Sequence record: MF327003
Direction: 5' to 3' (one strand)
Length of the DNA: 64,000 bases
From: Shigella phage Sf14
Part shown: positions 3,162-49,367 of the stretch, piece after piece
Layout: each line of letters opens with the position of its first letter
Position numbering within the stretch: position 1 is the stretch's first letter
The notes under the pieces: model-generated
Told to the model about the DNA's origin: nothing
Databases searched by the model: none
Seen by the model: only the letters and a program-made list of their open reading frames with translations
Made by a program: the position numbers and the translations under genes

Positions 3162-3170
3162 TGTATAGTC

Positions 3171-5275: not shown

Positions 5276-5345
5276 TTACCCTCCGAGATATCTTTTAAGA
5301 TTTTCTGGTTAATCATTTCCGCAATAGCATAGCGGATACAAACTA

Positions 5346-6804: not shown

Positions 6805-6874
6805 TTTATCTCTCCAATAAAAAAGGGAACCACCTTTCGATAGCTCCCATCATACAAAATTCTAGATATTACTG

Positions 6875-7468: not shown

Positions 7469-7469
7469 A

Positions 7470-8100: not shown

Positions 8101-8101
8101 A

Positions 8102-8470
8102 TCAAACTACCTGTGTAACTTGCAACGCTTCTGTTACGGAGATATCACCTACTTTTTCTTCTTTGATGAAGGTGAAGGTTAGAAGAGTTGTCTTCGGAAC
8201 CTCATCTTCCAGAGGTACACCATTAAGTTCATCAAAGATAGCTTGCGTAGTCCAATCTTCTTGACCATCTGGGTAGTGGTAGGTATATAACGGGAAATCA
8301 ACACTACACCAACCGAAAACAGGGCAACCATCTTCATCATCACGTACACGACGTAGCTCATTGTCAGACTTTGTAAAACGAAGAAAAAGCTCCCCATCAC
8401 GTTCATAGATGGAAGCATCATCTAATTCCCGATATGAAGTGTCAACTTTGACTTGAATCTCTTTATTCAT
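8102..8470 (-). CDS. hypothetical protein
   Basis: ORF track; start trimmed to ATG 8470 (MNKEIQ) giving 8-nt overlap. Confidence 0.5.
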   Translation of the reverse strand: MNKEIQVKVDTSYRELDDASIYERDGELFLRFTKSDNELRRVRDDEDGCPVFGWCSVDFPLYTYHYPDGQEDWTTQAIFDELNGVPLEDEVPKTTLLTFTFIKEEKVGDISVTEALQVTQVV

Positions 8471-8873
8471 AATAACCTCTCTCAGCTTTCTCAATTTTAT
8501 CCAGAAGTTTGATACACTCATTGTTATGGCATGTAGCCTCACTCTGGTGTAACTTCTTCTTCTGCTCAAGTAGAAATTTATAGTAACCTGATAGCTGCTC
8601 TCTTGTCAAGGGGTGCTCTGAAATAATATCAAGAGAGCTTTCACCTAAAGGTGAGAACATGCCATTGTCATCCACATTGTACAGTTCACCAGCAAAGAAA
8701 CCTTTGTTAGCCATTGTGATAGGTGAGCGTTCAATGACCTCAACAACAAACTTTGTGAACACCTTATCTCCCATCGTAATCAACTTGGTTCCTGCAATAC
8801 GAACCTTCATACCACTTCTTGTGTACTTGAAAGTACCATTATCATCTGCCCAAAGCTTCATAGTTTTCTCCAT
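8463..8873 (-). CDS. hypothetical protein (136 aa)
   Basis: ORF track. Confidence 0.55.
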   Translation of the reverse strand: MEKTMKLWADDNGTFKYTRSGMKVRIAGTKLITMGDKVFTKFVVEVIERSPITMANKGFFAGELYNVDDNGMFSPLGESSLDIISEHPLTREQLSGYYKFLLEQKKKLHQSEATCHNNECIKLLDKIEKAERGYYE

Positions 8874-8877
8874 AGAA

Positions 8878-8901
8878 ATAAAAAAGGCTCCCGAAGGAGC
8901 C
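8878..8901 (-). terminator. intrinsic terminator after endolysin gene
   Basis: GGCTCC-CGAA-GGAGCC hairpin with A-run on plus strand (U-run on minus transcript). Confidence 0.6.
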
Positions 8902-8911
8902 TCTTAATCTA

Positions 8912-9376
8912 CTATTTTGGATAAACAGCGTCAAGGTAAATCTTGGCTTCCAAACTACGTCTATTTTGTAGACCCTTGGAAGTTACTTTTTGACCATTCA
9001 CTGTAATCTTGTTCCACCACTGCATAGCTTCTGCACAACCAACTTTATTACCAGCATTGTGACGCTTGATAAAAGTTGAATCCTGCATAGCATTGATACC
9101 AATGTTGTAAGTCTCTACAACAAGTGCATCAAACTCATTCTGAGTAGTTGGAACCTTGATTGTTTTGTTTACTGCACCTACATAGTTCTCAACATCTGCA
9201 AGGAGATATTGTTCAGCTTGCTCGGCAGTAATCTTCATCCCCATCGTAACAGGTCTTCCGTTGATACGAATTGTACCATAACCAATTGTAGGGATTCCAG
9301 CAGAGTCTTTATAGGCTTCTAAACGAAGCCCTTCAAAGAACTTAATGGCTTCTAAGCCTTTACTTGAGAGTTGCAT
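8912..9376 (-). CDS. endolysin, T4 lysozyme-like (GH24) muramidase
   Basis: N-terminal EGLRLEAYKDSAGIPTIGYGT matches the T4 lysozyme catalytic Glu/Asp/Thr region. Confidence 0.85.
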   Translation of the reverse strand: MQLSSKGLEAIKFFEGLRLEAYKDSAGIPTIGYGTIRINGRPVTMGMKITAEQAEQYLLADVENYVGAVNKTIKVPTTQNEFDALVVETYNIGINAMQDSTFIKRHNAGNKVGCAEAMQWWNKITVNGQKVTSKGLQNRRSLEAKIYLDAVYPK

Positions 9377-9384
9377 TATTCACC

Positions 9385-32699: not shown

Positions 32700-35460
<2,761 letters not shown>

Positions 35461-35461
<1 letters not shown>

Positions 35462-35877
35462 TGAAAACAGATTTTGCAATCAATCTTGGTGGTGACTACG
35501 TAGCTAAATTAGGAAATGATTCTGTATACGTTGCTCACGGAGATTTAAAAATTACGGGTAATCAGATTAGAATTATCCCAGAAGACGATAAAGCTACTCA
35601 GGTAGCTCAAAGATTACATATTAGGTGTCTTCTAAGGGCTGGAGAAGTATTCTTTAATACATCTGCTGGATTCCCTTATTTACAGCTTGCTAAGTTCAAG
35701 CAGAAGACCTCTATTTTTGATAATTATATGAAAGGTTACCTTGTTGAAACGAGAGATGTAACAAACATCTACAACTACTCTTCAACAATGGATAATGCAA
35801 TGAGAAAAGTGTCAGTCAGATTTAATGCAACGACAACTGCTGACGATGTTGAAATTAATACAGAGGTAAACATTTAA
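35461..35877 (+). CDS. baseplate wedge protein, gpW/gp25-like (candidate)
   Basis: 138 aa with [14 protein letters not shown] pattern typical of small baseplate wedge proteins. Confidence 0.45.
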
Positions 35878-37346
35878 TGGCTGGATTAACAACTACAGGT
35901 TTACAAACAAAAAGATATCAAGAAATCTTGGATGATGTTAAAGCAAGTCTGTATAGAGATATCTCACCAAACCTTGATGTTTCTGAAGATAGCGAACTTG
36001 GGTTATTCTTAGCTTCTGTTTGCCGAGGTCTTGCAGACGTTCATGAAATCTTGTCAGAAATCTATGATGGTGGTACTATTGACAAAGCTGAAGGATTCAG
36101 TTTAGATGATGTAACAGCTTTGAATGCTGTATACAGATATGTGGCACAAGCTACAAGAGGTCAAGCTGAGTTCACTGGTAACTCTGGTGCTCCTGTACCA
36201 GCAACTACAAGATTAAGAAGCACAGCAGGTAACATCTTTTACCCTGTGTCAACTTTCACGCTGACTCCATCTTACTGTGTAGAGGCAAACTTAGAAGTTA
36301 ACTCTTTACGAACAGATGCAAACTATGTTATTATCATTGATAACATTGAGTATTCATATCAGCCGACTAGCTCTGATACCATTACAACATTGCTACAGAA
36401 ACTTGCAGATGCTATTAATGGTGGTATTATTGCAAAGGCTGAAGTTACTAATGATGGCTCAGTTCTAAGAATCTATAAAGACACTGGAGATATCATTGCC
36501 AGAACTAACCCTATGGTTGTTACTGCAACGACATTCTTAACATTTACAAAGATTACTTCAATCAGTGACGTTGTAGCAGATGAAACTGGAGCTATCCAGA
36601 CTCTGGCAGGAACCTTGATTGAGATTGAAACAACTGTAGATGGTCTTGATAGTGTCTTCAACAGATATGATTTGACAACAGGTCGTGATGAGGAAACTGA
36701 CACAGAACTGAGACAACGTTACTTAGAATCTCTGGCTGTTACCGGTGTAGGTACTCTGGATGCTATTGTAGCTGCTGTAAAGAGAGTTCAAGGTGTGTCT
36801 GACGCTTCTGGTGTAGAAAATGATACTGAGACAACAAACTCTGATGGTCTTCCTCCGAAGTCTTTTAAGATTGTTGTAGTTGGTGGTCAGAATGATAATA
36901 TTGCACAGGCAATCTGGGACACGAAACCTGCTGGTATTCGCCCATATGGTGCAATCTTTGGGACTGCATATGACTTAGGCTCTCTCCCTCACGATGTTTA
37001 CTTTAGTAGACCAATGCCTAAATACGTTTTTGTCAAGGTCACTTACTCTCTTTACGATGAAGAAACTCTTAACATCCCTGAACAGGATATTCATGACAGA
37101 ATTGTTCAAGGTATCAATACCTATGGTAGAACGTTGAAAGTTGGTAACGATGTAATCCCTAACAGAATTTATGGGCATATCTATGATGTGATTCAAGGTA
37201 TTGAGATTAATGAGATTAAGGTTGCACTTTCAAACAACCAAGCAATTCCACCTGCTGATGAGCAGTACACCACTTCAAGAATTACTATTGATGGTGACCA
37301 GTACACTGTTTGGGAAAGCTCACAGTATACAATTACCAAGGAGTAA
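35877..37346 (+). CDS. baseplate J-like protein (candidate)
   Basis: 489 aa following W-like gene. Confidence 0.4.
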
Positions 37347-37348
37347 CA

Positions 37349-38206
37349 ATGTTTAAAAAGATTGAAAACTTTTATGAGAAAACATTGGACGAAAGAACTG
37401 TAACTCAATTCAAAGATAAGTTTATTTACACAAGTCTATTGAAATCTATCACAGATGAGTTACAATTATTAGAGGATATTAGTAATCAGTTATATACTGA
37501 AAGAAATATTCGTGTAGGTGTTGGCACACAACTTGATAACATCGGGGCTTTGATTAAAGTCCCTAGACCTATTGGTGCTGATGATGACATTTACAGAGCT
37601 ACCCTCTACATTCAAATTTTCTTAAGACGTTCTGACACCACACCAAGCTTCTTACAAAAAGCTGTTATGACCCTTTACAACGCATCATTCAGTCAGATTT
37701 TTGAGCACATTACGCCAATGACTGGTGGAATTGTTATCCGTGTAAACACTCGTAATGACGTGTTAGATACAGCATACACACTTTCTAAGATTGCTGCAAC
37801 AACTATTGGTTCAGCAGTTATCCTTAGAGATGTTACCTTAAATGGCACTGCTTGGACTCCTGTAGAGGTTGCTGATTCATCTCTGGCAATCACTGATGAG
37901 AACAATAACTGGTTTGTAACAAACACTAACAAGGGTCTTATTACGAACAACACAGGTGGCTCTCTAGAAGCAAATAAATTAGGTAGTTTTGCAGATGCAG
38001 GTGTAAGAGATGGTTATGTAAGAGTGGATAAAACTGGTGGAAGTACCAGTAAAGATTATTTAAAAGTCAGCAAAACAAACAATAGCAACGACTATTTCAT
38101 TGCTGGTAAAGAAACAGTAGCAGGTGGTGATTATGGGATTATGGCAGAAGTCGCCCAAATCGTCAAAGGCAGAAAAGATAAATCTCAACAAGAAGGAAGT
38201 TCATAA
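37349..38206 (+). CDS. baseplate/tail fiber-associated protein
   Basis: start trimmed to ATG 37349 with AAGGAG upstream. Confidence 0.45.
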
Positions 38207-38505
38207 TGTCTCTTTCATGGTCTACAGACACAGTTGATGCTGACGGTAACCAGCTTAAAGTTTTACCACCTCCAGAAATTCAAGCCACTGGCCTATTAAG
38301 GGGTGAACCTATGGGTCGTCAGTGGTTTAACTATATTATCAACTATTTGCTTAACAAAGTAAATGGTACGGTTGGAGAGGTTCGTTCATTTGCTACGGAG
38401 CAACCTGATTTAGTTTCCAATGGTTGGGAATTAATTGACACAGTAACAGGAACTGCACCCACTAGCACGACTAACCTTTACACATACGAATATAAAGGGA
38501 GCTAA
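38206..38505 (+). CDS. hypothetical tail protein (99 aa)
   Basis: ORF track. Confidence 0.4.
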
Positions 38506-38507
38506 TA

Positions 38508-39683
38508 ATGCCAGTCGGTGAAATTCAAATTAGTGCATTGCCTCAAGCCTCATTGCCTATTGATTTAAGTGATATCTTTCACCTTAAGCAAGGTATCGAG
38601 GATAAACGATGCACACTTGAGCAATTACTTGCTCCACACGCATCTTTAAGAAATAACCCACACGGTGTTACAAAGGTTCACGTAGAACTCGGTAATGTTG
38701 TTAACGCACTCCAATTAGTGGCTGCTAATAACTTGTCAGACGTGGTTAGTGTTGAAGAGGCTAGGCAGAACCTTAATATTCTATCAAGTGATGAAGTTAA
38801 TGCCCTTATTCAGAATCACATTAATGACAAGAATAACCCTCACAACACTAACAAGATTCAAGTAGGTTTGTCTAATATTCAAAACTGGACATATTCAAAC
38901 TCTTACTCTGAGGATGCTGATAAGTATGCTACTGCAAAAGCTGTGAATGCTTTATACAGGGCTATCCAGAATAGCTATCCAATCGGTACTATTCATTTGT
39001 CAGTTAACCCTGCAAACCCATCTACATATTTACTTTGTGGTGGTACTTGGGAGTTAGTTTCTAAAGGAAGGTCTCTTGTCGGTTATGACACAGATACAAG
39101 ACCTGTAGAATCAGTATTTGGTTCTGCTACTGTAACACTTACACAAAATAACATTCCAAGTCACACACACTCTGTGTTGTTAACTGGTGGTGGACACTCC
39201 CACAATGCAACAGTAGTAATTTCTAGCTTTGACTATGGGACTAAGAGCACATCAAGTTTTGATTATGGCTCTAAGGCCACAAACGACTCTGGAAGCCACG
39301 CTCATAATGTTAATGGTTCTGTGAGTAGTGCTGGTAGTCACAGCCACAGGATTCCATTGAGGGGTTCTGACAGGGGTGGTGTGAACGCTATTACGGCAAC
39401 GGCTGATGCAGGTGTTGGTAATGCGTCATATACAGACTTTGATGGGGTTCACACACATACCTTCAACGTTAACTCTTCAGTTGGTGGTAACCACTCTCAC
39501 AGTGTGTATATCGGAGCACATGGACACAGTGTTGCAATTGGTTCACATGGACACTCAGGTACTGTGACAGTTCAATCTTCTGAGCACACTCACTCAGGTA
39601 CAACTGGTGCATTTGGTGCTGGACAAGCATTTAATATTGAGCAACCTTCTTATGTTGTATATGTTTGGAAGAGAACTGCGTAA
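38508..39683 (+). CDS. tail fiber protein with His-rich HxH repeat C-terminal domain
   Basis: repeated HSHN/HAHN/HSHR/HTHT/HGHS motifs in last 180 aa. Confidence 0.55.
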   Translation: MPVGEIQISALPQASLPIDLSDIFHLKQGIEDKRCTLEQLLAPHASLRNNPHGVTKVHVELGNVVNALQLVAANNLSDVVSVEEARQNLNILSSDEVNALIQNHINDKNNPHNTNKIQVGLSNIQNWTYSNSYSEDADKYATAKAVNALYRAIQNSYPIGTIHLSVNPANPSTYLLCGGTWELVSKGRSLVGYDTDTRPVESVFGSATVTLTQNNIPSHTHSVLLTGGGHSHNATVVISSFDYGTKSTSSFDYGSKATNDSGSHAHNVNGSVSSAGSHSHRIPLRGSDRGGVNAITATADAGVGNASYTDFDGVHTHTFNVNSSVGGNHSHSVYIGAHGHSVAIGSHGHSGTVTVQSSEHTHSGTTGAFGAGQAFNIEQPSYVVYVWKRTA

Positions 39684-39728
39684 TTATTTTATAAGGGGCT
39701 ACACAGCCCCTAGAAAGAGGATTTATAA

Positions 39729-42107
39729 ATGGCTGAATATAAGCTAAGTGAGCTAAACAGTATTGATACAGTTCGCTCAGAAGATTTACTTCACCTAAGA
39801 ATTATCAAAAGGTCTGATATGCTAGGTGATGAAGACCGTAAAATGACCTATGCAAATTTCCTTGCCTCTTTCAAACTAGAAAGATTCTTACAACTAACTG
39901 GTGGGGATATGACAGGGAATCTTGGCATCGTCAAATTAAGATACGGTGGAAAAGACTTATTAGACCCAACAGGTTCTTCTGAGGTTATTCTCGGTGACAC
40001 TGCCAAGACCTTTAGAATTAATGCAAGTGCTTTAAGATTAACTGTAAATGATGCCACAAGGTCTGCAACAGTTTATCACACACTTAATAAACCATCTCCT
40101 AATGAATTAGGTATGAGAACTAATACTGAAAATGATGCAAGATACGCTATGAAGGAAACTGAAAATACCTTCTTGGCAAGACAAATCATTAATATCAACG
40201 GTGTTGGTTTGACACTTAAAAGTATCTTACCAGATGGTGGAGCATATATTGAAGCAAGAGACTCAAATAATGCTTTGAGATTCACAGTTGGTAACTTGAC
40301 TTCTGGGACTGATGTTACATTAGTTAACAGCAAAGGTGCTACGTTGACTCTTGGTACAAACTCTGTTAGTGTTGACAAGAACTTTGAAATCAATGGTCAG
40401 GTTCAGCCTAATAACTGGAACAACCTTGATGCAAGATTCTTTACACAGACTGCTGCTGACCAGAGATTTGCAAGACTTAATGCAAGTAATAACTTTGTTG
40501 GGGTTAACAACTTCAACGGGAAGACTTATGTTATTGCAGATAGTAATGCACTTAACTTAAGAGCGGCTTCAGAGAATGCTGCATTATTTATGCGTGGTTA
40601 CAACAGTGCTGGGACAGGTGCTTGGTATGTGGGTCAACCAGATGGTACGCAGTCTGAGATTGTTTTAGCAAACCAGATGACAAATGTTAACTTGAAAATT
40701 GCTACAGAGTTTTCATTTAACAAAGCTATTAATGTAACTGGTCAGGTAAAACCAAGTGACTTCGCAAACTTTGATACAAGATATGTTCCAAGCTCTTTAA
40801 CAAACGTGCTTGCAAGAACTAATGCTGCAAACGTTTTTACTAACCCACAAACTATTGTTACTACAGATGCGGCTTTCACATTGCAAAGTGGGACAGCTAA
40901 TTCATCACTATATATTGTTGGTGCTAATGCAGATGGAAACAGACGTTGGTATGTTGGTAACGGTGAAGGTAGTAGACCAAACTCTCTGTTCCTGTACAAC
41001 TACTCAAGCGGTGGTGTACAGTTAGAAATTGCTGATACTTTCATGTTTAATAGAAGCGTATCAGTATCTGGTCAGGTTCAGCCTACAGATTGGACAAACT
41101 TTGACTCAAGATACTACACACAATCTGCTGCAAACTCAAGATATATGTTGTCTGGTGTATCTGGAACGGGAACCGAAGTCGGTGATGCAACAGGTATTGC
41201 TTGGAATGCAAAAACAGGTTTGTACAATGTTACCAACTCAACTGGTGGTTCGACTCACTTAGTTTACCAAATGTACCTTGGAATTGGCGCATCCACACCT
41301 TCTGCACAGCTTAAATTTAACTATAAGAATGGTGGAATCCACTATAGAACAGCAAGGGATGCTTTTGGTTTTGAAGAGGCTTGGGCTAAAATCTACACAG
41401 ACCAAGACAAACCTACACCTTCCGAGATTGGTACTTACACCAAGGCTGAAGTAGACCAACGTATTGCTTCTGCTGTAACTGATTCTACAGACCTTAAAAA
41501 AGTGTATCCAGTTGGTATTGTGACGTTCTTTGCTTCTAATGTCAACCCAAATACAGCTTTCCCAGGCACTACTTGGACTTACTTGACAGAAGGTGCAAAC
41601 AGAACTATTAGAATCGGCTCTGCGAATGGCTCTGATGTGAAAGGTCTTGGGGGTGCTGATACGGTTGCATTAAGTGTTGGTCACATCCCTGCGCACACTC
41701 ACGGATTCTCTGGAACGACTTCTTGGTTTGACTATGGTACTAAGTACACAGATGCTCAGGGTGCTCACGACCATGACAGAGGTAACATGGAAATATCTGG
41801 GGTGTTCGGGTGGTTCAGAAGTGATAATGCTGCATTCTATACTGCAAGTGGTGCTTTTGCAATGGGTGGTAGTCAGGCTTCTCATGGTTTCACTGGTTCT
41901 AACTTCACATATGGTGCTCCAGTTGATTTCTATGCTTCCAGAACTTGGACGGGTAGAACAAGCTGGGTAGGTGCTCATGCTCACGGTGTAGGTATTGGTG
42001 GACACAACCACACATTTAGTGGTGATACTGGTGCAACTGGTTCTGGTGCAGCATTCAGTGTTCTTAACACTTACATTAAATTAATGGCTTGGGTAAGAAC
42101 TGCATAA
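39729..42107 (+). CDS. long tail fiber protein sharing HxH C-terminal module
   Basis: 792 aa; internal repeats (GQVQP..W.N.D.R); C-terminal IPAHTHGFSG..HDHD..HAHG..HNHT. Confidence 0.6.
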   Translation: MAEYKLSELNSIDTVRSEDLLHLRIIKRSDMLGDEDRKMTYANFLASFKLERFLQLTGGDMTGNLGIVKLRYGGKDLLDPTGSSEVILGDTAKTFRINASALRLTVNDATRSATVYHTLNKPSPNELGMRTNTENDARYAMKETENTFLARQIININGVGLTLKSILPDGGAYIEARDSNNALRFTVGNLTSGTDVTLVNSKGATLTLGTNSVSVDKNFEINGQVQPNNWNNLDARFFTQTAADQRFARLNASNNFVGVNNFNGKTYVIADSNALNLRAASENAALFMRGYNSAGTGAWYVGQPDGTQSEIVLANQMTNVNLKIATEFSFNKAINVTGQVKPSDFANFDTRYVPSSLTNVLARTNAANVFTNPQTIVTTDAAFTLQSGTANSSLYIVGANADGNRRWYVGNGEGSRPNSLFLYNYSSGGVQLEIADTFMFNRSVSVSGQVQPTDWTNFDSRYYTQSAANSRYMLSGVSGTGTEVGDATGIAWNAKTGLYNVTNSTGGSTHLVYQMYLGIGASTPSAQLKFNYKNGGIHYRTARDAFGFEEAWAKIYTDQDKPTPSEIGTYTKAEVDQRIASAVTDSTDLKKVYPVGIVTFFASNVNPNTAFPGTTWTYLTEGANRTIRIGSANGSDVKGLGGADTVALSVGHIPAHTHGFSGTTSWFDYGTKYTDAQGAHDHDRGNMEISGVFGWFRSDNAAFYTASGAFAMGGSQASHGFTGSNFTYGAPVDFYASRTWTGRTSWVGAHAHGVGIGGHNHTFSGDTGATGSGAAFSVLNTYIKLMAWVRTA

Positions 42108-42115
42108 TTACCTTG

Positions 42116-42144
42116 TTGACTAACTGTCAAGATGGTGTTAATAT
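42116..42144 (+). promoter_or_regulatory. promoter TTGACT-N17-TAATAT
   Basis: -35 42116-42121, -10 42139-42144. Confidence 0.55.
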
Positions 42145-42193
42145 TTCTTAGTAGGTATTCTCACCATCTTGGCTCAAGAAGTAAGGTGATTAA

Positions 42194-42388
42194 ATGCCAA
42201 CCATTCTAGCAATCCTCATGAAAAACCTTGGGGCATTCTTTTGGAAGCTTCTTTTTTCTCTTCTCAGTGAATACATGATTGAAAAAGTGTTCTTTAAGCT
42301 TGCAAGATACCTTGCGAGTAAAACAGATACACCTATTGATGATGAATTTGTAGATACCTTGGAAAAGGCTTTTAAAGGTGAGAAATAA
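42194..42388 (+). CDS. small membrane protein (64 aa)
   Basis: N-terminal hydrophobic segment ILAILMKNLGAFFWKLLFSLL. Confidence 0.5.
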   Translation: MPTILAILMKNLGAFFWKLLFSLLSEYMIEKVFFKLARYLASKTDTPIDDEFVDTLEKAFKGEK

Positions 42389-42762
42389 TGAAGTGGCTTG
42401 AAGATGCTTTTAAGAATAATATTGGTGCAATCGTTGTAGGTATTTTCAGTGTAATTGGTATGTACACTACAATGCAGGTCTCTGATGGTAAACAGGAAGT
42501 GTCTATCACAAATAAGTTACAGCAGTTGGATGGTTACTCAAAAGGTAACTATTCAGCTATTCGTGACTTACAATCTGATATGAAGCTCCTACAATTAGGG
42601 ATGGAGAACCAGAAAGTTCAGCTAGAGAATGTTAAGGGAGAAAACGCTAAGTTGACTAAGACCCTTGATAAGTTCTCTGACAGTGTTAACAACTTAGCAC
42701 AATCTGTATCAGCTTTGCAAGCAATTACAGAACAAAATACCCAAAGCACTAAAAAGAAATAA
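42388..42762 (+). CDS. membrane-anchored coiled-coil protein (124 aa)
   Basis: N-terminal TM IGAIVVGIFSVIGMYTT then heptad-rich region. Confidence 0.5.
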   Translation: MKWLEDAFKNNIGAIVVGIFSVIGMYTTMQVSDGKQEVSITNKLQQLDGYSKGNYSAIRDLQSDMKLLQLGMENQKVQLENVKGENAKLTKTLDKFSDSVNNLAQSVSALQAITEQNTQSTKKK

Positions 42763-42767
42763 TTCTA

Positions 42768-42797
42768 AGGCTCCTTTTTACGGGAGCCTTTTTGTTT
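42768..42797 (+). terminator. intrinsic terminator AGGCTCC..GGAGCCT + TTTT
   Basis: 7-bp stem followed by T-run; sits between convergent units. Confidence 0.65.
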
Positions 42798-43697
42798 CTA
42801 CTTACCTACTGATAAAGGTGCTTCAATCTTACCAGCATGTTTATACCCTTTCAATCCACCTAGGAAGTCATCTGCTGTCATATGTCTCAAATCTTCAAGG
42901 GACTTCAAATCTTGATGAATTTCAAACTTAGGTGCTGGAAACTCTTCATTGCCAAGAAGCTGAAAAACCTGCGACATATGGTTCTGATAGATTTGAGTAT
43001 CACCATAAGTCCCTACCAGATATCGCGGTGTATATCCCGTCAGTTTACACAATACTTCCAAGATAAAGGCATAGGAAGCAATGTTAAACGGTAACCCTAA
43101 GAACGTATCACAAGAGCGCTGATACCATTTCAAATCCACCTCATTAGTGTTCGAGATATAAATCTGAAAAAGTACATGGCAAGGTGCTAATGCCATAGAG
43201 TTACTTGAGATATCTGCTGCATTCCATGCGTTAACGAGCATGTAACGGTCTGTAGGAGACTTTCTCATCTTCTCTACAAGATTACTCAACTGGTCTACAA
43301 CAACGCCACCATGACCTTCGTAGGCTCTCCATTGGACCCCATAGATTCTTCCTCCAGCGTCCTCCAGCCAATCATTCTCTGTAGCATAGGTTGTTTTCAA
43401 CCAACGTTTAAAATCATCTGTCCAGATAGTCCAACGCTCTCCGTCGTTCTCTCCCCAAGTTCTGTAACGCAAATGACCTAGTTGGTTTTCACCGTTCATA
43501 AACCATAATGCTTCACCGAGGACTTGACGCATAAATGTTTGTTTTGAGGTGATTAATGGAAATCCACTACGCATATCAAAACGGAACTCAGGTGGAGCAA
43601 AGGTCGAAATCACTGAGCCAGTTCGGGTTTTACGCAACTCACCAACTGATAAAACATGGTTTAAAATAGCTTTGTAGCTTACATCTGCTTGTGACAT
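42798..43697 (-). CDS. thyA: thymidylate synthase
   Basis: MALAPCH active-site motif, YQRSCDTFLGLPFNIASYA near-identical to enterobacterial ThyA. Confidence 0.9.
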   Translation of the reverse strand: MSQADVSYKAILNHVLSVGELRKTRTGSVISTFAPPEFRFDMRSGFPLITSKQTFMRQVLGEALWFMNGENQLGHLRYRTWGENDGERWTIWTDDFKRWLKTTYATENDWLEDAGGRIYGVQWRAYEGHGGVVVDQLSNLVEKMRKSPTDRYMLVNAWNAADISSNSMALAPCHVLFQIYISNTNEVDLKWYQRSCDTFLGLPFNIASYAFILEVLCKLTGYTPRYLVGTYGDTQIYQNHMSQVFQLLGNEEFPAPKFEIHQDLKSLEDLRHMTADDFLGGLKGYKHAGKIEAPLSVGK

Positions 43698-43698
43698 A

Positions 43699-44244
43699 TT
43701 AGAAAAGTCCTCTTACTTGTGGAACATAGGTATCAAACACTACAGACTTGTCTTCTGAAGGTTTGGACTGTACTTTAGCAAATAAATCTGTGTCATACAA
43801 GTACTGGAAGAAACCCTCATAAGGTAGCTTGACAGTAGCCTCTTCAGTAACTTCTTTAATAACACTGTGGAAAACTACGTCAGCATACGGCAAAGCTGAG
43901 ATTAAGATATTGGCTCCACCAATTACTAAAACATCTTCCTCAATAGAACTATCAATATACTTCAGGAAAGCCCCAAAAGCTTCAGGCTTAACTTTTGCTT
44001 TACAATGAGAGTCATCTTTAAAATCCAGACCATAAAAGTCAAGAGAGTTTGTCAAGACAAGGTTCTCACGGTTTGGCAAAGGTTTGCTACCAAGAGTCTT
44101 CCAAGTTTCGCTACCCATCAAGACTAACTGGTTAACAGTCTGCTTCTTAAACTCTGCCATATCTTGTTTATTACGAGGCCAAGGCATTCCAGTAGCTGTG
44201 CCAAACTCCCCGTTAATACCACTTGCAAAAATTAACTTAATCAT
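43699..44244 (-). CDS. frd: dihydrofolate reductase
   Basis: N-terminal MIKLIFA..G.PW motif; adjacent to thyA. Confidence 0.75.
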   Translation of the reverse strand: MIKLIFASGINGEFGTATGMPWPRNKQDMAEFKKQTVNQLVLMGSETWKTLGSKPLPNRENLVLTNSLDFYGLDFKDDSHCKAKVKPEAFGAFLKYIDSSIEEDVLVIGGANILISALPYADVVFHSVIKEVTEEATVKLPYEGFFQYLYDTDLFAKVQSKPSEDKSVVFDTYVPQVRGLF

Positions 44245-44513
44245 TTTGTAAATCCTTTGATAATGAACCAGTTCAGAACACGCTTCACAATCCTGTTCGG
44301 ATGGTAAACAAGGTGAGGTTGTGGTTCATAACTTCCATAAGCCCAAAAAGATAAAATCTTTCCACATCCACAGCAACGGGTGTACTCTTCAGCGATGTTA
44401 CCAGAGACAATCTCTGAAACTTCACCTTGGAAGTTCTCACCTCCACAATGGCAGCATTTAACTGGCTCACCATTATTCATGTAACACTGTGATACTCCGC
44501 TTAAGATTTTCAT
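44241..44513 (-). CDS. zinc-ribbon protein (90 aa)
   Basis: CHCGG ... CCGCG cysteine pairs. Confidence 0.5.
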   Translation of the reverse strand: MKILSGVSQCYMNNGEPVKCCHCGGENFQGEVSEIVSGNIAEEYTRCCGCGKILSFWAYGSYEPQPHLVYHPNRIVKRVLNWFIIKGFTK

Positions 44514-45025
44514 TTTTTGTTTACCTTAAAAGTGCGTTCAAATTTTAGTATGAAATCAAGGTCATCAACTTCACTTGACAGGAAATCTTCAAAGTGTTTT
44601 GGAACAAAGTCTAAGAAACTCATAGAACCAAAGTCACCTGTCAGTTTGATAGTGCCTTGTTCACACTCAGCAGTTACTACATGACCACCTTCAGTCTGCT
44701 TAACAATCTCTACAATATCAGCTATAAAGATGTTTAGCAATGCTTTAAAGCTTCTTGGATACTGTGTATCTGAGTAGAGTTCAATACTTGGCTCCAGATT
44801 AACTTCAATAGAACGACTGTCACGTAGCTCTGGAGTAAATAAGTGAGCAGGAAGAACACACAAGGAATCAGCAGTGTCTTCATCAATGAACTCAATAGTT
44901 CCTGCATCATAGTTAGTATCAATCAAGAATGTCTTCTCAGTATGATTTGTAGACTTCATATGCTCAGACAACATTGATTTCAAGAACTCTGCTTCAGGCT
45001 GGCAAAGGGTAATTCCAATTTTCAT
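44510..45025 (-). CDS. hypothetical protein (171 aa)
   Basis: ORF track. Confidence 0.55.
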   Translation of the reverse strand: MKIGITLCQPEAEFLKSMLSEHMKSTNHTEKTFLIDTNYDAGTIEFIDEDTADSLCVLPAHLFTPELRDSRSIEVNLEPSIELYSDTQYPRSFKALLNIFIADIVEIVKQTEGGHVVTAECEQGTIKLTGDFGSMSFLDFVPKHFEDFLSSEVDDLDFILKFERTFKVNKK

Positions 45026-45026
45026 G

Positions 45027-45530
45027 TTAAACCTCTACAAAAGTATCTTTGTCATTATCATACTTGAAGAATTTTATACACTTTTGTGTATTCCAGTCAA
45101 CCTTTTCATCATAAGCAATACCTTTTGCTACACGCTTTCCAATAGTCTGTGTAATGATTTCACGGAGCTTTACATACTCTTTCCAATCTCTTGAGCCAAT
45201 AGTTATATTATATTTGTTATAACTATCAATTGCTTGTTCGTTATAGCGTATCTCCATAGGACTTGCAGGTTTGTACAGATGGGGTAGTAAATTCCAACCC
45301 ATATGCCCCTCTTCTTTGGCTAGTTCTAGTTGGTGAAGATATTCATTTAACCGTCCATCTTCCTCAAGCCACCTGTGAAGTGTCTGCAAGCCTAAGATGT
45401 TTTTGTTAAAGTGTGATGCACGTTTCACAGAGCCTAAATCACAACGATAATCTGACTTTGGTAGTGACAGTATGCTGCCTTGCAATACACTGTACCCAAA
45501 GTATAAATCGAGTTTTAAGGGAAGAGACAT
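45027..45530 (-). CDS. hypothetical protein (167 aa)
   Basis: ORF track. Confidence 0.55.
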   Translation of the reverse strand: MSLPLKLDLYFGYSVLQGSILSLPKSDYRCDLGSVKRASHFNKNILGLQTLHRWLEEDGRLNEYLHQLELAKEEGHMGWNLLPHLYKPASPMEIRYNEQAIDSYNKYNITIGSRDWKEYVKLREIITQTIGKRVAKGIAYDEKVDWNTQKCIKFFKYDNDKDTFVEV

Positions 45531-45874
45531 TTGATATCCTCATTTTTAAACACAAAAGTTGTGTAGTTGTGACCGTCAACATCTAACCAGACAGCCTTGA
45601 CTTCAACACCATCTAGGTTCTCTGACAACTCTTTGATGAAGTGGTCTCGTACCTTTTTGGCACTGGTGGTTTCAAGTTTGATGTTAGAGATTGCAGAGCC
45701 AATTGCCATATAACCTCTTACACGGTTTGCTTCAGTATGCTTCATACCACCAGTTGTGTAAACCTCTTTCAAGGTCTCCAGAATTGCATTACCATAAAGC
45801 TTCTCTGCTGGAGTTGGTTTACTATAGAAGCCAATTGCAAAGTTATCGTTAAAGATTGCATTTTCACGTTTCAT
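45515..45874 (-). CDS. hypothetical protein (119 aa)
   Basis: ORF track. Confidence 0.5.
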   Translation of the reverse strand: MKRENAIFNDNFAIGFYSKPTPAEKLYGNAILETLKEVYTTGGMKHTEANRVRGYMAIGSAISNIKLETTSAKKVRDHFIKELSENLDGVEVKAVWLDVDGHNYTTFVFKNEDIKCLFP

Positions 45875-45875
45875 A

Positions 45876-46175
45876 TTAATCTGCCAGCCTTAAGTTAAAA
45901 TTTACACCAAGTTTTGTACAAGCATTAAGCATGTACTCTAAAGAAATCTTTTGAGGGTCGTTAATGATATTTGATACACGACTCTGTGAGATTTCACAAA
46001 CAGTTGCTACTTGAGCCTGAGAAAGTTTTAGCTTCTCAATCTCTTTAGAGAATCTGAAAGATACAAAGTCTTTCATCTCTTCTATATCCATTGGACAGAC
46101 ATAACTCTCCATTTCAGCCTCTCTATCAGCCTCCCAAGAATCTTGAGGTGCATATGGGTCAAAGACTTCATTCAT
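45876..46175 (-). CDS. helix-turn-helix (XRE-like) DNA-binding protein
   Basis: LSQAQVATVCEISQSRVSNI resembles Cro/C1-type HTH. Confidence 0.5.
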   Translation of the reverse strand: MNEVFDPYAPQDSWEADREAEMESYVCPMDIEEMKDFVSFRFSKEIEKLKLSQAQVATVCEISQSRVSNIINDPQKISLEYMLNACTKLGVNFNLRLAD

Positions 46176-46371
46176 CTTTCTTTCTCCGTTTTCGAGAAGT
46201 GTCTATTAACGAATCAAGATTAGTTGCTCTGACGTTTTCACGAGTCCCATTAATGTAGTTATCTAAAGACTCTACAACGGTTGCAAAATCATTAGCCCAA
46301 ACTCTGTAAATAACTACTCCGTCATCATCGACCACTTCACCATAGTCTGTTCTACAGATGTTCTTCCTCAT
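46168..46371 (-). CDS. hypothetical protein (67 aa)
   Basis: ORF track. Confidence 0.45.
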   Translation of the reverse strand: MRKNICRTDYGEVVDDDGVVIYRVWANDFATVVESLDNYINGTRENVRATNLDSLIDTSRKRRKKDE

Positions 46372-46373
46372 GA

Positions 46374-46754
46374 TTATAAACCCATGCAGTGACGATTTTC
46401 AATAAAGTATTGAACACCTTTGAAAGACTCACGCATAAAGTTGTCTTTCACATCTTCTACAGTCTCAATACCTTTGCTATCAAGAAGGTCAACGTTCTGA
46501 GTGACCATCTCATCTGCTAATCTGTCATAGTAATCTCCCATAAAATGGTAGTTGTAGTCAACCATCTTATCAGTCATTTCTTGAACAGTCTGAGCAGACA
46601 ACGGTTTAGTCAACTCTCCAGCATTTGAAGCGATTTTCTGTACAATCTTACAAGATTCTAAAGCAACACCATTAAAGTTTGCTTCAGGCATCTTCATAGC
46701 TGCTGCACTAAAACTCATACCAAGAGCAACAATACCAACAAGTAACTTTTTCAT
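46374..46754 (-). CDS. secreted/periplasmic protein (signal peptide)
   Basis: N-terminal MKKLLVGIVALGMSFSAAA signal-like sequence. Confidence 0.55.
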   Translation of the reverse strand: MKKLLVGIVALGMSFSAAAMKMPEANFNGVALESCKIVQKIASNAGELTKPLSAQTVQEMTDKMVDYNYHFMGDYYDRLADEMVTQNVDLLDSKGIETVEDVKDNFMRESFKGVQYFIENRHCMGL

Positions 46755-46995
46755 AACTACCTCCGAGGTTTCTGACGGGTTCCTATATAATTTTCTATAT
46801 AGGTAGTATACCCGTCAGGTTACTCATGTCAACAACTTTATACTAAATACATTCTAACTGCTGCATTCACTGCAAATGATAACAGAGTAAGGGCTAAGGC
46901 TGCTTTGTATGTTATACTTAACAGTTTACTTATGAAGTAAGATAATGATAAAACAACAAAAACAAACAGGATAATTGTACTAAACATACTAACCT

Positions 46996-48096
46996 CTATT
47001 CATAGTCTCGAATTACTAGCCCAACAGGGAACTGTAAAGAACCCTTACGAGTCATCTTCTGGAACTGAACCGTTAAAGGTTTCCCGATAAATTCTTCAGG
47101 ATGTTCAGCAAGATACTGTTTCTTCTCGTGTGTAGTTTTCCATGAAACATCTACAAAGACGTTAGGAAGAGTCTCTACAACGAACTTACCATGACCACGT
47201 TTATCAGTCTTTACACCAGTTACTTTAAATTCCTGTGTGTGCATCTTCTTGTGCTTAATCAGGAAGTAAGAGCGATGACCACACTCATAGAACGAATCTG
47301 GTGAGATTGACCGATACATTGCCCCTTCAAACTTGAGTTTAACCCAATTGTCATGAGCATTATCAAATTCTTCCCAAGAGTTAACACGGATTGTCTGAAC
47401 AGGTACAACCCTGCAAGCATCACCGAGTTCAACGATTGGTGAATTATCAATAACTTCACGACGCTCAGGCCAAGATTTAGTCTTGTCACAGATATCATAC
47501 CAGTAGAATTTAAGAAGGTGACGGTCTGGATTGTCAGCATTCTTAATCATAGACACAATATCTTCCAAGTCCCAACCATGAGCATAAATCTCACCGTCGA
47601 AATCTTCAACATCTTTGTGCAGTTTCAGCATAAGAAGAACATCAGGAATCAACTCTACAGGAATGTTGTATACCGTGTTCTCACGAGAGTATGCTGTAAA
47701 ACTTTCTGAGTCAGCATCTCTTGAAATCCTGCAACGAACCCCGTCAAGTTTAGGTTGAGCATCGGCAGGGAATACCAGATACTTCTTGTGACTTATCTTG
47801 GAAGCATCCTGAGCAAGCTGTACACCAACCTTCTCAACATTCTCTGCTTCAGACTTTGTGTAAGCATACCCTTTACGGTCAACCTGCTTCTTGTACTTAG
47901 CAGCAACTTCAAAGAGAGCTTGCTGTTCAGCATTACGCTCATTCTTCTTACCGATGTTCTTAGGTTCTGCTGTGTACTCTTCAAACATCATCTTGCCATT
48001 TTCTTTACCATAAGTTGTGACGACTTTATCACCTACAGCAACACATGACCAGACGTTGAAAGAACCATCTTTATTTTGTTTGTACAGAATTGTCAT
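46996..48096 (-). CDS. ATP-dependent DNA ligase
   Basis: KxDG adenylation motif in PKLDGVRC; size 366 aa typical of T7-type ligase. Confidence 0.8.
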   Translation of the reverse strand: MTILYKQNKDGSFNVWSCVAVGDKVVTTYGKENGKMMFEEYTAEPKNIGKKNERNAEQQALFEVAAKYKKQVDRKGYAYTKSEAENVEKVGVQLAQDASKISHKKYLVFPADAQPKLDGVRCRISRDADSESFTAYSRENTVYNIPVELIPDVLLMLKLHKDVEDFDGEIYAHGWDLEDIVSMIKNADNPDRHLLKFYWYDICDKTKSWPERREVIDNSPIVELGDACRVVPVQTIRVNSWEEFDNAHDNWVKLKFEGAMYRSISPDSFYECGHRSYFLIKHKKMHTQEFKVTGVKTDKRGHGKFVVETLPNVFVDVSWKTTHEKKQYLAEHPEEFIGKPLTVQFQKMTRKGSLQFPVGLVIRDYE

Positions 48097-48187
48097 TTAT
48101 TACGTGCCTCACAAGCTAGACAACCTTTTGTGAAAAATGAGTGCCAAGAGCACCCTCCAAAATCTTCAGAGATGATACGTAAGACTC

Positions 48188-48445
48188 TCATTGCCACTTA
48201 CCTTTTAAATACACATTTACAACTTGGTGGTCATAGCCATCTTTAAGTTTATGCTTGACCTCTTCAACTCTGTAGTTCCAATCATTAATCTCAACAGTCT
48301 CCCCTTCTCGTGGAATAACTGGATTGCGTTGAGCTACAGTCATAGTGCTGAAGATGTTTTCATACTTATAGATAAAGTTTACTAGAACCTGCATATCAAT
48401 ATCCTTCATCAAAAACTGTGGTGTGTGACTGACTATTCTTCCCAT
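48188..48445 (-). CDS. hypothetical protein (85 aa)
   Basis: ORF track. Confidence 0.45.
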   Translation of the reverse strand: MGRIVSHTPQFLMKDIDMQVLVNFIYKYENIFSTMTVAQRNPVIPREGETVEINDWNYRVEEVKHKLKDGYDHQVVNVYLKGKWQ

Positions 48446-48641
48446 ACTTGTAAGAAGTTGTCGTCTGAGAATTTGGGCAGCGAACTACAATAACATCTCT
48501 GCTAGTGGCATCACCATTAAGCTTGTAAATCTTACAGTCTTGCATTTCTGGAGGAAGTCTGTAAGAAGCATCCTTGTTCTCATAAGAAGGGTTGCACCCC
48601 ACCAGTAGGACCGCTAAAGCTGGTATCAATAATTTTAACAT
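48396..48641 (-). CDS. small lipoprotein (81 aa)
   Basis: lipobox LLVGC after hydrophobic signal MLKLLIPALAV. Confidence 0.55.
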   Translation of the reverse strand: MLKLLIPALAVLLVGCNPSYENKDASYRLPPEMQDCKIYKLNGDATSRDVIVVRCPNSQTTTSYKYGKNSQSHTTVFDEGY

Positions 48642-48651
48642 TTTAAACCTC

Positions 48652-48918
48652 TCAATAAAATAAATCTGAAGCTTTTGAATTTACAGGATTCAAAGAACCT
48701 TCGTAATGTTCTTCATAACCCTCTTGGCAGATATTATACAGTTCTTTGAATCGGGTTTCATCAACTGGTTTAACATCTTTCTTAGCGCATAAGAAGAGAT
48801 ACCAATCATACCCCAAATCTCTGCACCAAGCCTCTGAGACAAAAGCTATTGATTTGTCTTCGCTCTTGAAGATTACTAAAGCTTCTTGCTCTTTATTGCT
48901 CATTTTTGGTGTCTCCAA
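48652..48918 (-). CDS. hypothetical acidic protein (88 aa)
   Basis: ORF track. Confidence 0.5.
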   Translation of the reverse strand: METPKMSNKEQEALVIFKSEDKSIAFVSEAWCRDLGYDWYLFLCAKKDVKPVDETRFKELYNICQEGYEEHYEGSLNPVNSKASDLFY

Positions 48919-49109
48919 AATTCAATATCAATAAGTTCCTGTGCAATACTCTTCAGATTCCCTTTCAAGAAAACCTTTTCAGAGTTAGGTAGGCTTGCAT
49001 TATCAATGAGTCTATTCATTCTGTCAAAAAGAGTTTTCTTCCGATTCTTGATAGTCTCTTTTGAAGCCCCTTGCATCATGGCAAGATGAGTTCTTCCACG
49101 ATGGCTCAT
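48900..49109 (-). CDS. hypothetical basic protein (69 aa)
   Basis: ORF track. Confidence 0.45.
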   Translation of the reverse strand: MSHRGRTHLAMMQGASKETIKNRKKTLFDRMNRLIDNASLPNSEKVFLKGNLKSIAQELIDIEFWRHQK

Positions 49110-49306
49110 AGACGTTCACCTTTAAGGTAGCCTGTCTTATCCTTGATAATCTTGCCCCCAGCGATAAAAATATCAACCTTGAAAAGATTTTCATTAGAAA
49201 GCTTGAGGTGCTTATGGCTACTGCAAATGATGATGCACATAGATTCAATCTCACTTTGAGAGTATCCAGCACATTGCAGTTGAACTTCAATTTCTGAAAT
49301 AGTCAT
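49106..49306 (-). CDS. hypothetical protein (66 aa)
   Basis: ORF track. Confidence 0.45.
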   Translation of the reverse strand: MTISEIEVQLQCAGYSQSEIESMCIIICSSHKHLKLSNENLFKVDIFIAGGKIIKDKTGYLKGERL

Positions 49307-49367
49307 ACAAGTCTCCTATACAATATAGAGTATAAGGTACTCTTCCATGAGCACCTTGTCAACACTA

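Follow-up and report, generated by a model that had tools for sequence, protein, structure and literature searches.

In phage T4, host lysis involves the holin T, the endolysin E, the spanins PseT.3 and PseT.2, and the antiholins RI and RIII, whose genes are dispersed over the genome, with t located after the fibre genes 37 and 38. The antiholin RI consists of a SAR helix and a helical periplasmic domain. A spanin-independent strategy is represented by disruptin (gp28 of phage phiKT), a small amphipathic helical protein without an export signal, whose action on the outer membrane follows that of the holin and endolysin. In phage PM2 (Corticoviridae), P17 (gp k; 53 aa, one transmembrane domain, TMD) is described as a holin, and P18 (gp l; 51 aa, described as being without a TMD) as a protein required for outer-membrane disruption; later work proposes P5 as an endolysin (PMC9502842), a label that it also bears in the RefSeq record. 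Homologues of P18 were found in Felix O1, RB49, and PaP3 by Krupovic and Bamford in 2007 (PMC1950889), and the experimental phenotype of the family comes from PM2 only. PM2, LUZ24, PaP3, and T4-like cyanophages have been listed as spanin-less (PMC6139136). For the FelixO1-like phages, genome announcements describe scattered lysis genes and a putative class-III holin gene (PMC4319497, PMC4591319, PMC4392139), and in the announcement of phage Meda no holin was identified (PMC6486253).

The 64,000-nucleotide stretch analysed here (the window) belongs to a Mooglevirus, a FelixO1-like myophage, and the locus under study is 100% identical to that of Shigella phage Sf16. The two open reading frames (ORFs) of the initial annotation were recovered on the plus strand at 42194..42388 (64 aa, gp61-like) and 42388..42762 (124 aa, gp62-like), each preceded by the Shine-Dalgarno sequence AAGGTGA (42183-42189 and 42376-42382, respectively). 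The junction is not the ATGA claimed initially, which is the version found in Felixounavirus Bas63, but TAATG, in which the stop codon (TAA, 42386-42388) and the start codon (ATG, 42388-42390) have one base in common, suggesting that gp61 and gp62 may be made together by co-translation. In comparison with Bas63, dN/dS is ~0.05 for gp61 and ~0.025 for gp62, and the protein identities of 88% and 92% (92-93% for the gp62 homologue) exceed those of the neighbouring thymidylate synthase (78%), dihydrofolate reductase (68%), and fibre (51%). It can be concluded from these values that both are real genes, and they are under strong purifying selection. The 792-aa ORF at 39729..42107 (+) encodes a long tail fibre whose distal part resembles gp37 and matches gp37_trimer and gp37_C; the Sf14 homologue of this fibre, gp53, has been localised in the virion (PMC11821841). 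This fibre gene lies immediately upstream of gp61, a T4-like order of a fibre gene followed by lysis genes.

As judged from its sequence, gp61 is a member of the PM2 P18/gp l family (PF26925, phrog_402). It matches the phrog_402 profile with an E-value of 1.1e-21, as does PM2 gp l itself (E 8.2e-14), and an hhalign comparison of the gp61-family profile with gp l gave 91.8% probability (E 7.5e-7) over 42 columns at 38% identity. Moreover, PF26925 ('Phage_PM2_Gpl') is precomputed on gp61 homologues of 98% identity. The members of this family are small (~50-80 aa) helical proteins with the motif A-x6-T-x-T-x2-D-D-(E)-(F/W), which is present in gp61; among 34 diverse members, A37, D49, and D50 do not vary, and T44 and L19 hardly do. 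The AlphaFold2 model (pLDDT 81.7) contains three helices at residues 2-23, 26-42, and 47-63. Instead of the single hydrophobic segment initially noted, these helices are amphipathic; the maximum hydropathy in a 19-residue window is 1.51, with K10 and K18 inside that window, and there is no convincing transmembrane segment. The net charge is 0, the N-terminal half being basic and hydrophobic and the C-terminal helix, which follows the invariant A..KT.T..DDEF motif, acidic. A fold search with the model returned only uncharacterised family members from BFVD and nothing significant from the PDB. Elsewhere, P18-family proteins are annotated as being of 'unknown function' or even as 'L-fuculose phosphate aldolase'.

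The second protein, gp62, has the architecture that was initially described, an N-terminal transmembrane segment and a coiled coil. One hydrophobic helix spans residues ~11-29, with a Kyte-Doolittle value of 1.62 in a 19-residue window (1.8-2.25 in homologues), and is followed in the AlphaFold2 model by a single helix of ~88 residues (36-123) with a clear heptad register, in which hydrophobic residues occupy 17 of the 25 a/d positions. The charges flanking the TMD are nearly balanced (0 vs -1), and the protein has no cysteines. It belongs to phrog_4038, a family restricted to the Ounavirinae, and genes of this type carry the label holin in GenBank. No match was obtained to the Pfam holin families, including PF11031 (Phage_holin_T), and hhalign comparison of the gp62 family with the T holin of phage JSE gave 0.2% probability, which places gp62 outside the T4 T-type family by sequence. 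PM2 P17, a member of phrog_32586, likewise showed no detectable similarity in the same type of comparison (0.65% probability). The family of LUZ24-type gp58 reached 26%, confined to the coiled-coil segment, and an Rz-like spanin PHROG was matched marginally (E 0.099). Outside the Ounavirinae, the best match of the gp62 profile is a 110-aa protein of the metagenomic cassette L101 (E 3.5e-5). PDB sequence searches returned coiled-coil noise only, and an NCBIfam search gave nothing useful. Neither gp61 nor gp62 matched the tail-fibre chaperone and adhesin families (T4 gp38, Tfa, and Mu U) in Pfam and PHROG.

Genes for P18-like proteins were sought in viral contigs with a degenerate DNA motif, which yielded mostly Ounavirinae and a handful of independent contexts. 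The P18-like gene is located directly downstream of a Phage_lysozyme gene in two contigs (L012 and L016), of a GH108 muramidase gene in Vibrio phage 1.061.O, and of a Peptidase_M15_3 gene in L101. In Krischvirus, it is found between gp37 and t, directly upstream of the T4-type holin gene, and in PM2, the P18-type gene overlaps the holin gene k. All branches of the Ounavirinae examined have a P18-like gene followed by a gene for a coiled-coil protein with an N-terminal TMD, and the same pair occurs in LUZ24/PaP3-like and Bjorn-like podophages and in L101. In several podophages, the P18-like gene is inside the structural module with no lysis gene adjoining. The neighbour of the P18-like gene in contig L095 was considered as a lytic transglycosylase, had no Pfam support, and was left uncounted.

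The endolysin of this phage is encoded by a 154-aa GH24 lysozyme ORF at 8912..9376 (-), whose relatives are annotated as lysozyme or endolysin. It lies 32.8 kb upstream of the pair, in accordance with the ~33 kb first given. The enzyme is soluble and has neither a signal sequence nor a SAR sequence, and therefore a holin is needed. gp62 is the only conserved membrane protein of the late operon; other small membrane-protein ORFs are present in the window at 198-338 (+), 5346-5852 (-), and 46838-46987 (-). A canonical overlapped i/o-spanin pair is encoded by gp117 and gp118 in Sf16, at a position outside the window. The initial idea of a lysis cassette split across the genome is right, but the arrangement is ordinary and has already been documented for FelixO1-like phages (PMC4319497, PMC6486253).

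The transcription signals assigned initially to the pair were also evaluated. The sigma-70-like promoter candidate at 42116..42144 (+), TTGACT-17 bp-TAATAT with a TG extension, is present in the sequence, and both hexamers are kept between Mooglevirus and Felixounavirus Bas63 with a variable spacer. However, its 9/12 match is no better than chance, the region containing 21 promoter-like matches vs 17.6 +/- 4.3 in shuffled sequences, i.e., no enrichment, and it is a putative promoter of the pair only. The candidate is overlapped by a strong RNA/DNA hairpin with a 12-bp outer stem in the gap between the fibre gene and gp61 (42126..42173, +). The folding energy is -23.1 kcal/mol (z = -4.78), and none of 200 shuffled sequences was equally stable. 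Roscha1, SarahDanielle, and Yersinia P778 likewise have hairpins or terminator-like stems at this position, and the structure may possibly be an attenuator or a processing site. Downstream of the pair, the terminator was confirmed as a bidirectional intrinsic terminator at 42767..42797, where a hairpin (42767-42790) and a T-run were detected on both strands. Two operons that converge here, the late one (+) and thyA-dfr (-), have this terminator in common. Its hairpin is conserved across the Ounavirinae or exchanged for another: Mooglevirus, Felixounavirus, and Kolesnikvirus have the same hairpin, and SarahDanielle and P778 have different ones at this site.

Published data on relatives provide information on the importance of the two genes. 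In the PhageMaP knockout data for Felixounavirus Bas63 (bioRxiv 10.1101/2024.10.10.617714, supplementary file 3), loss of gene 29, the gp62 homologue, gave fitness scores of -1.4 to -1.7 in MG1655, -1.2 to -1.4 in BW25113, and -0.35 to -0.48 in S17, and loss of gene 28, the gp61 homologue, gave -0.58 to -0.75, -0.67 to -0.96, and -0.47 to -0.74, respectively. For the endolysin knockout, the scores were -0.5 to -0.9 in MG1655 and about -1.1 in S17, and those of the i- and o-spanin knockouts were mostly positive, i.e., without a fitness cost (bioRxiv 10.1101/2024.10.10.617714). The cost of losing gene 28 vanishes with certain hosts, the TerY-P and AVAST strains, and could be a polar effect on gene 29. 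Such scores do not point to a particular function, and the costs for genes 28 and 29 are similar in size to those of fibre genes. In addition, Sf14 gp55, the gp62 homologue annotated as 'Holin or lysozyme', was detected in phage particles by mass spectrometry (PMC11821841); a structural role for the 124-aa protein is possible, given this homologue in the virion proteome.

Collectively, we consider the pair to be a late lysis module, with gp62 as the putative holin and gp61 as a P18-type helper for the outer membrane, a reading to which we assign a probability of about 0.6. The lysis-related function proposed initially is supported indirectly by the homology of gp61 to P18, by the location of this family next to endolysin and holin genes, and by gp62, the strongest candidate for a holin that this genome offers and most likely the holin of this phage. 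The more specific suggestion of a holin/antiholin pair is not supported for the 64-aa protein, which is no holin-like membrane protein. In the proposed mechanism, the pair would be expressed late, its genes occupying the 3′ end of the operon that encodes the tail fibre. gp62 is probably a single-pass inner-membrane protein with an N-in/C-out topology, whose long C-terminal helix may oligomerise as a coiled coil. It would build up in the membrane and then permeabilise it at a set time, presumably by hole formation, which would let the distant soluble GH24 endolysin reach the cell wall. gp61 would be an accessory to the holin and endolysin, with a step at the outer membrane suggested by the PM2 precedent, beside the canonical i/o-spanin pair.

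Of the described systems, PM2 offers a likeness in both genes. gp61 is homologous to P18 by sequence, with the same PHROG and Pfam family and a similar absence of a convincing transmembrane segment; in both phages, the gene overlapping that of the P18-type protein encodes a small protein in which an N-terminal TMD precedes a coiled-coil segment, and both pairs end a late operon downstream of receptor-binding protein genes. The differences are that the order is reversed here, the l-like gene preceding that of the TMD protein, that gp62 has 124 residues and no detectable similarity to P17, and that gp61 has ~10 extra hydrophobic residues at its N-terminus. Furthermore, a soluble endolysin of the classical type is encoded here, as is a two-component spanin; the cited PM2 literature reported neither, although P5 was later proposed as an endolysin. 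The likeness to T4 is one of layout, with dispersed lysis genes, a late operon that closes with a gp37-like fibre gene and, right behind it, the putative holin gene, and the outline of a class III holin, one N-terminal TMD and a large C-terminal domain; T4-like Krischvirus even has a P18-like gene between gp37 and t. FelixO1-like phages also carry rIIA and rIIB; a non-exhaustive look for rI and rIII turned up no homologue. However, gp62 shows no sequence or profile similarity to Phage_holin_T, and one long coiled-coil helix makes up its C-terminal domain, whereas that of T is globular. Disruptin, from which gp61 differs in not being strongly cationic, is a conceptual parallel for P18-type proteins.

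The initial annotation had also offered an i-spanin-like role, and the TMD and coiled-coil architecture of gp62 is indeed that of an i-spanin such as lambda Rz, which shares with gp62 a length in the range of ~110-150 aa and a small overlapping partner gene. It could be imagined that gp61 and gp62 constitute a lipoprotein-free outer-membrane device equivalent to a spanin, in which the coiled coil of gp62 is periplasmic, gp61 takes the place of the o-spanin, and the true holin is another small membrane protein, for which the window has the three other ORFs mentioned above. The marginal Rz-like PHROG match, the outer-membrane role of P18 in PM2 (PMC9502842), the spanin-less listing (PMC6139136) of the P18 carriers PM2, LUZ24, PaP3, and cyanophages (PMC1950889), and the recurrence of the pair in LUZ24-like phages and L101 are in line with such a device. 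We nevertheless regard it as unlikely, because a canonical i/o-spanin pair of the overlapped type (Kongari families) is already encoded in the genome and the o-spanin neighbour is absent. In contrast to Rz1, gp61 is not a lipoprotein, having no lipobox and no cysteine, and its gene is upstream rather than embedded or downstream; no o-spanin ORF with a lipobox was found embedded in, overlapping, or adjoining 42388-42762, and gp62 itself is free of cysteines. The only good lipobox ORF of the window is at 48396-48641 (-), in an early operon. Moreover, the PM2 partner P17 is described as a holin, not a spanin, and knockouts of the Bas63 spanins are neutral or positive although those of genes 28 and 29 are costly, which would not be expected if the outer-membrane step is redundant in shaken cultures.

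The location directly after two fibre genes in the Ounavirinae raises the question of whether the pair is an assembly factor or a minor structural part of the gp37-like long fibre, in the slot taken by T4 gp38 and by the fibre chaperones of Mu, P2, and lambda. The position of the Krischvirus P18-like gene, the podophage P18-like genes in structural modules beside needle, fibre, or adaptor genes, knockout costs of the same size as those of fibre genes, and the presence of gp55 in particles of Sf14, which has no known fibre chaperone (PMC11821841), point in this direction. However, fibre-tip chaperones and adhesins normally co-vary with their fibre, and the identity between Mooglevirus and Felixounavirus is 88% for gp61 and 92% for gp62 vs 51% for the fibre. 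gp62 also carries a membrane anchor, PM2 P18 is presented in the literature consulted as a factor in lysis and not as a structural protein, and P18-like genes adjoin endolysin genes in at least four lineages with no fibre gene nearby. Membrane contamination of the Sf14 sample is plausible because it was pelleted and not gradient-purified, and gp55 was placed in none of the maps. In MG1655, the knockout of gene 29 is costlier than that of the adjoining fibre gene 27. A fibre role is accordingly given a low probability. We find it still less probable that gp62 is a regulator, either an RI-like antiholin whose SAR-like helix is weakly hydrophobic and can be released, or a membrane protein that confers immunity or superinfection exclusion. 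Its TMD contains Gly, Ala, Ser, or Thr at 7 of 18 residues, a bias stronger in the LUZ24-type and L101 counterparts, its outline is the same as that of T4 RI, and rIIA and rIIB are present. Nevertheless, a phage growing alone in liquid culture should be unaffected by, or even gain from, the loss of an antiholin or exclusion protein, and loss of gene 29 is clearly deleterious in three K-12 hosts. The gp62 gene belongs to the late operon and is not an early gene, and the late region has no other strong conserved holin candidate. The immunity function suggested at first finds no support, as there were no PADLOC matches and knockouts are costly on plain laboratory hosts.

A late lysis module built from gp62 and gp61 may be one case of a wider pattern. 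We tentatively suggest, with much less confidence than for the function of the pair itself, that the P18-like protein and its TMD/coiled-coil partner form a lysis module of two genes, of the same type as PM2 P17/P18, that is mobile by horizontal transfer and common to Corticoviridae, Ounavirinae, LUZ24/PaP3-like podophages, and uncultured phages. The TMD protein would then stand for a separate class of holins that has gone unrecognised, and a third, lipoprotein-independent route through the outer membrane would be provided by the P18-like protein. The main points of the present picture were known beforehand, since in a deposited phage that is identical at this locus the 124-aa gene is labelled holin, and the P18 homologue of Felix O1 was reported in 2007. 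The holin of the FelixO1-like group is nonetheless putative, and this widely used group includes the Felix O1 phage employed in diagnostics as well as phages for therapy against Salmonella, E. coli, and Shigella. A general outer-membrane-disrupting role of P18-type proteins, if there is one, would bear on how spanin-less phages complete lysis. A mobile module, if real, would explain how LUZ24, PaP3, PM2, and the T4-like cyanophages breach the outer membrane, and why P18-like knockouts are costlier than spanin knockouts in Bas63.

The two open reading frames, gp61 (42194-42388, +; 64 aa) and gp62 (42388-42762, +; 124 aa), numbered after their counterparts in Shigella phage Sf16, lie exactly where the initial annotation placed them, and AAGGTGA precedes both. 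The four-base ATGA stop/start overlap described between them is actually a TAATG junction, with one base in common. A 792-aa gp37-like long fibre gene lies upstream of gp61, and thymidylate synthase and DHFR genes lie downstream of gp62 on the opposite strand. A 3.5-kb query round the pair is 100% identical to Sf16 (MF158043.1), a Mooglevirus of the Ounavirinae (FelixO1-like) whose record labels gp61 'hypothetical protein' and gp62 'holin', and 95-96% identical to other Moogleviruses. The match to Sf16 is 99.9% over 35000-50500, while 1-15900 keeps no constant offset to it, with 92-99% identity, indels, and substituted segments in the left ~15 kb; the window phage is therefore slightly mosaic and very closely related to Sf16, Sf13, and Sf15. 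Compared with the Felixounavirus Bas63, gp61 and gp62 are under strong purifying selection (dN/dS about 0.05 and about 0.025), with protein identities of 88% and 92%, against 78% for ThyA, 68% for DHFR, and 51% for the fibre. The 700 bp at 42100-42800 form a nucleotide conservation island with at least 80% identity in 240 phage records, in most of whose genomes the 3.5-kb query, with flanking fibre and thyA/dfr, falls to 60-80%.

gp61 matches phrog_402 (PHROG; E 1e-21), and its close homologues carry a precomputed assignment to Pfam family PF26925, named Phage_PM2_Gpl. Gp l (P18; 51 aa) of phage PM2 also matches phrog_402 (E 8e-14) and aligns with the gp61 family profile at 91.8% probability (E 7.5e-7; 42 columns, 38% identity). 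The P18-like family shares an invariant A-x11-D-D core and a nearly invariant T44 within the motif A..KT.T..DDEF. In the AlphaFold2 model of gp61 (pLDDT 81.7), helix 1 (2-23) is hydrophobic and broken by two lysines, helix 2 (26-42) is amphipathic and basic, and helix 3 (47-63) is acidic; with a maximum hydropathy of 1.51, the hydrophobic membrane segment originally ascribed to this protein is unconvincing as a transmembrane element. In PM2, disruption of the outer membrane requires P18, and the holin is a distinct protein, P17 (gp k) (PMC9502842). P18 homologues were reported in Felix O1, RB49, and PaP3 (PMC1950889), and tblastn recovered the same lineages. The kinship of gp61 with P18 is thus already published, the Felix O1 homologue being stated there, yet it is missing from GenBank annotation. 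The P18-like gene of Yersinia phage vB_YenM_P778 (locus L007, ORF064) is labelled 'L-fuculose phosphate aldolase', as is Bas63 gene 28 in the PhageMaP tables; on a protein of 65-72 aa, this is evidently an automatic mis-annotation that is propagating.

gp62 has a single hydrophobic helix at its N-terminus, after which residues 36-123 are predicted to form one helix with a regular heptad pattern; this bears out the transmembrane segment and coiled coil first proposed for it. Its family, phrog_4038, is confined to the Ounavirinae and occurs in 295 phage records, most with at least 80% identity and 39 (Erwinia, Hafnia) below 60%; 1.84 billion cluster representatives, searched exhaustively, contained only three real gp62 clusters plus fragments. 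Searches of Pfam, NCBIfam, and PADLOC gave no family match except coiled-coil noise, and gp62 resembles neither holin T nor PM2 P17. The best match of its HMM outside the Ounavirinae is a 110-aa protein on contig L101 (E 3.5e-5, in a small database), and profile-profile comparison with the LUZ24-type family gave a probability of 26%. With the LUZ24-type proteins, gp62 shares architecture and synteny; we do not claim homology between the two families. No holin was identified in the Meda announcement (PMC6486253), and the name 'holin' for gp62 is inferred from how the protein is built, where its gene lies, and indirect evidence from fitness scores.

P18-like genes directly follow a Phage_lysozyme endolysin in a Shewanella prophage and Vibrio-type contigs, a GH108 muramidase in Vibrio phage 1.061.O, and a Peptidase_M15_3 endolysin on L101, where the cassette runs M15 peptidase, P18-like gene, and the 110-aa TMD-coiled-coil protein. 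In T4-like Krischvirus the gene lies between the distal fibre gene and a holin T gene confirmed by Pfam, which it immediately precedes, and in PM2 it overlaps holin gene k. Because the neighbours comprise endolysins of three unrelated classes and two holins that are also unrelated, a lysis role is the best reading of the family, whose members in podophages GAP52, LAh_8, and L125 lie within structural modules without an obvious lysis neighbour. All Ounavirinae branches examined keep the order fibre, P18-like gene, TMD-coiled-coil protein, and convergent thyA. In LUZ24/PaP3-, UFV-P2-, Bjorn-, and Lyrsu03-type podophages, the P18-like gene is followed by one for an 82-106-aa protein whose N-terminal TMD abounds in Gly, Ser, and Ala and precedes a coiled coil, and these two may be an unrecognised lysis pair. 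In these 'spanin-less' podophages (L011, L015, L022, and L023), the P18-like gene overlaps the TMD/coiled-coil gene (phrog_8140, LUZ24 gp59/gp58) in mid structural module, with adaptor and tail-fibre genes either side. PM2, LUZ24, PaP3, and several cyanophages are spanin-less according to Kongari et al., whose two-component spanin families include Felix O1, Moogle, and Mushroom (PMC6139136).

The distance of about 33 kb noted between the pair and the endolysin holds, the GH24 ORF (8912-9376, -), without signal or SAR sequence, being 32.8 kb away. Moogle and Sf16 encode an overlapped i-spanin/o-spanin pair adjoining rIIB and polynucleotide kinase, at 82038-82545 of the Sf16 record and outside the window, in which tblastn with the Moogle spanins found nothing; nor does gp62 embed a lipobox ORF. 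An 81-aa ORF at 48396-48641 (-), equivalent to Sf16 gp75 'hypothetical', bears a textbook lipoprotein signal (LLVGC lipobox) and lies among early genes next to the ligase; it is not the o-spanin, and may be a lipoprotein for blocking receptors or for superinfection exclusion. In the gap that separates a gp71-like gene from DNA ligase, left without annotation in the Sf16 record, a 49-aa ORF (46838-46987, -; MFSTIILFVFVVLSLSYFISKLLSITYKAALALTLLSFAVNAAVRMYLV) has two predicted TMDs, a size and topology that are class-II-holin-like, but its operon is early-type. Should gp62 not be the holin, candidates would be a 46-aa ORF with one strong TMD (198-338, +) and a 168-aa ORF with two C-terminal TMDs (5346-5852, -), on the endolysin's strand and ~3 kb downstream of it.

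The terminator proposed after the pair is upheld by a hairpin and T-run at 42767-42797 that is predicted to terminate transcription in either direction. Moogle-, Felixouna-, and Kolesnikviruses share this hairpin unchanged, with other hairpins substituting in more distant Ounavirinae. The proposed promoter (42116-42144) does match at 9/12 positions with a TG extension, and Bas63 keeps its hexamers, but such matches are equally common in shuffled sequence (21 observed versus 17.6 ± 4.3). The stretch from the end of the fibre gene to gp61 contains a very stable hairpin at 42126-42173 (+; -23.1 kcal/mol, z = -4.8) that overlaps this candidate, including its -10 element; Roscha1, SarahDanielle, and Yersinia phage P778 have hairpins or terminator-like stems in the matching intergenic position. 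Expression by read-through or attenuation from the fibre operon is thus no less probable than a promoter of the pair's own, and the hairpin may serve attenuation or processing of the late transcript ahead of the lysis genes.

Knockout fitness was taken from PhageMaP data for Bas63 (bioRxiv 10.1101/2024.10.10.617714), an assay that does not reveal mechanism and permits polar effects. Gene 29 (bas63_0029, the gp62 homologue) scored -1.43 to -1.70 in MG1655, -1.17 to -1.37 in BW25113, and -0.35 to -0.48 in S17, and gene 28 (bas63_0028, the gp61 homologue) -0.58 to -0.75, -0.67 to -0.96, and -0.47 to -0.74, respectively; neither effect is larger than that of the fibre genes. The endolysin knockout scored -0.53 to -0.86 in MG1655 and about -1.1 in S17; i-/o-spanin knockouts were positive in MG1655, mixed but mostly positive in BW25113, and mostly positive in S17. 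With TerY-P and AVAST defence plasmids, gene 28 was neutral and gene 29 still negative. These scores are consistent with gp62 playing an important part in lysis and gp61 an accessory one. Costly knockouts argue against the antiholin or immunity function initially suggested, and we also disfavour a lipoprotein-free outer-membrane device with the holin encoded elsewhere, because losing genes 28/29 is costly while losing the spanins is neutral. A fibre or virion accessory is kept alive by the mass-spectrometric detection of Sf14 gp55, 'Holin or lysozyme', in particles (PMC11821841, Table 1); gp55 corresponds to gp62, as it lies two genes past the 792-aa fibre gp53. It was placed in no map, and the particles were pelleted without gradient purification; membrane contamination or genuine virion association could explain its presence. 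The TMD of gp62, the P18 lysis literature and genomic contexts, and conservation far above that of the fibre make this accessory role the less favoured explanation.

The reading we favour, at a probability of roughly 0.6, is that the pair is a late lysis module, with gp62 as the putative holin and gp61 as an accessory factor of the P18 type. Combined with an endolysin and spanins encoded far away, such a module would give a dispersed layout like that of T4. The locus holds nothing new in kind; a useful correction would be to replace the gp61 labels 'hypothetical' and 'L-fuculose phosphate aldolase' by one naming it a lysis protein like P18 of PM2.
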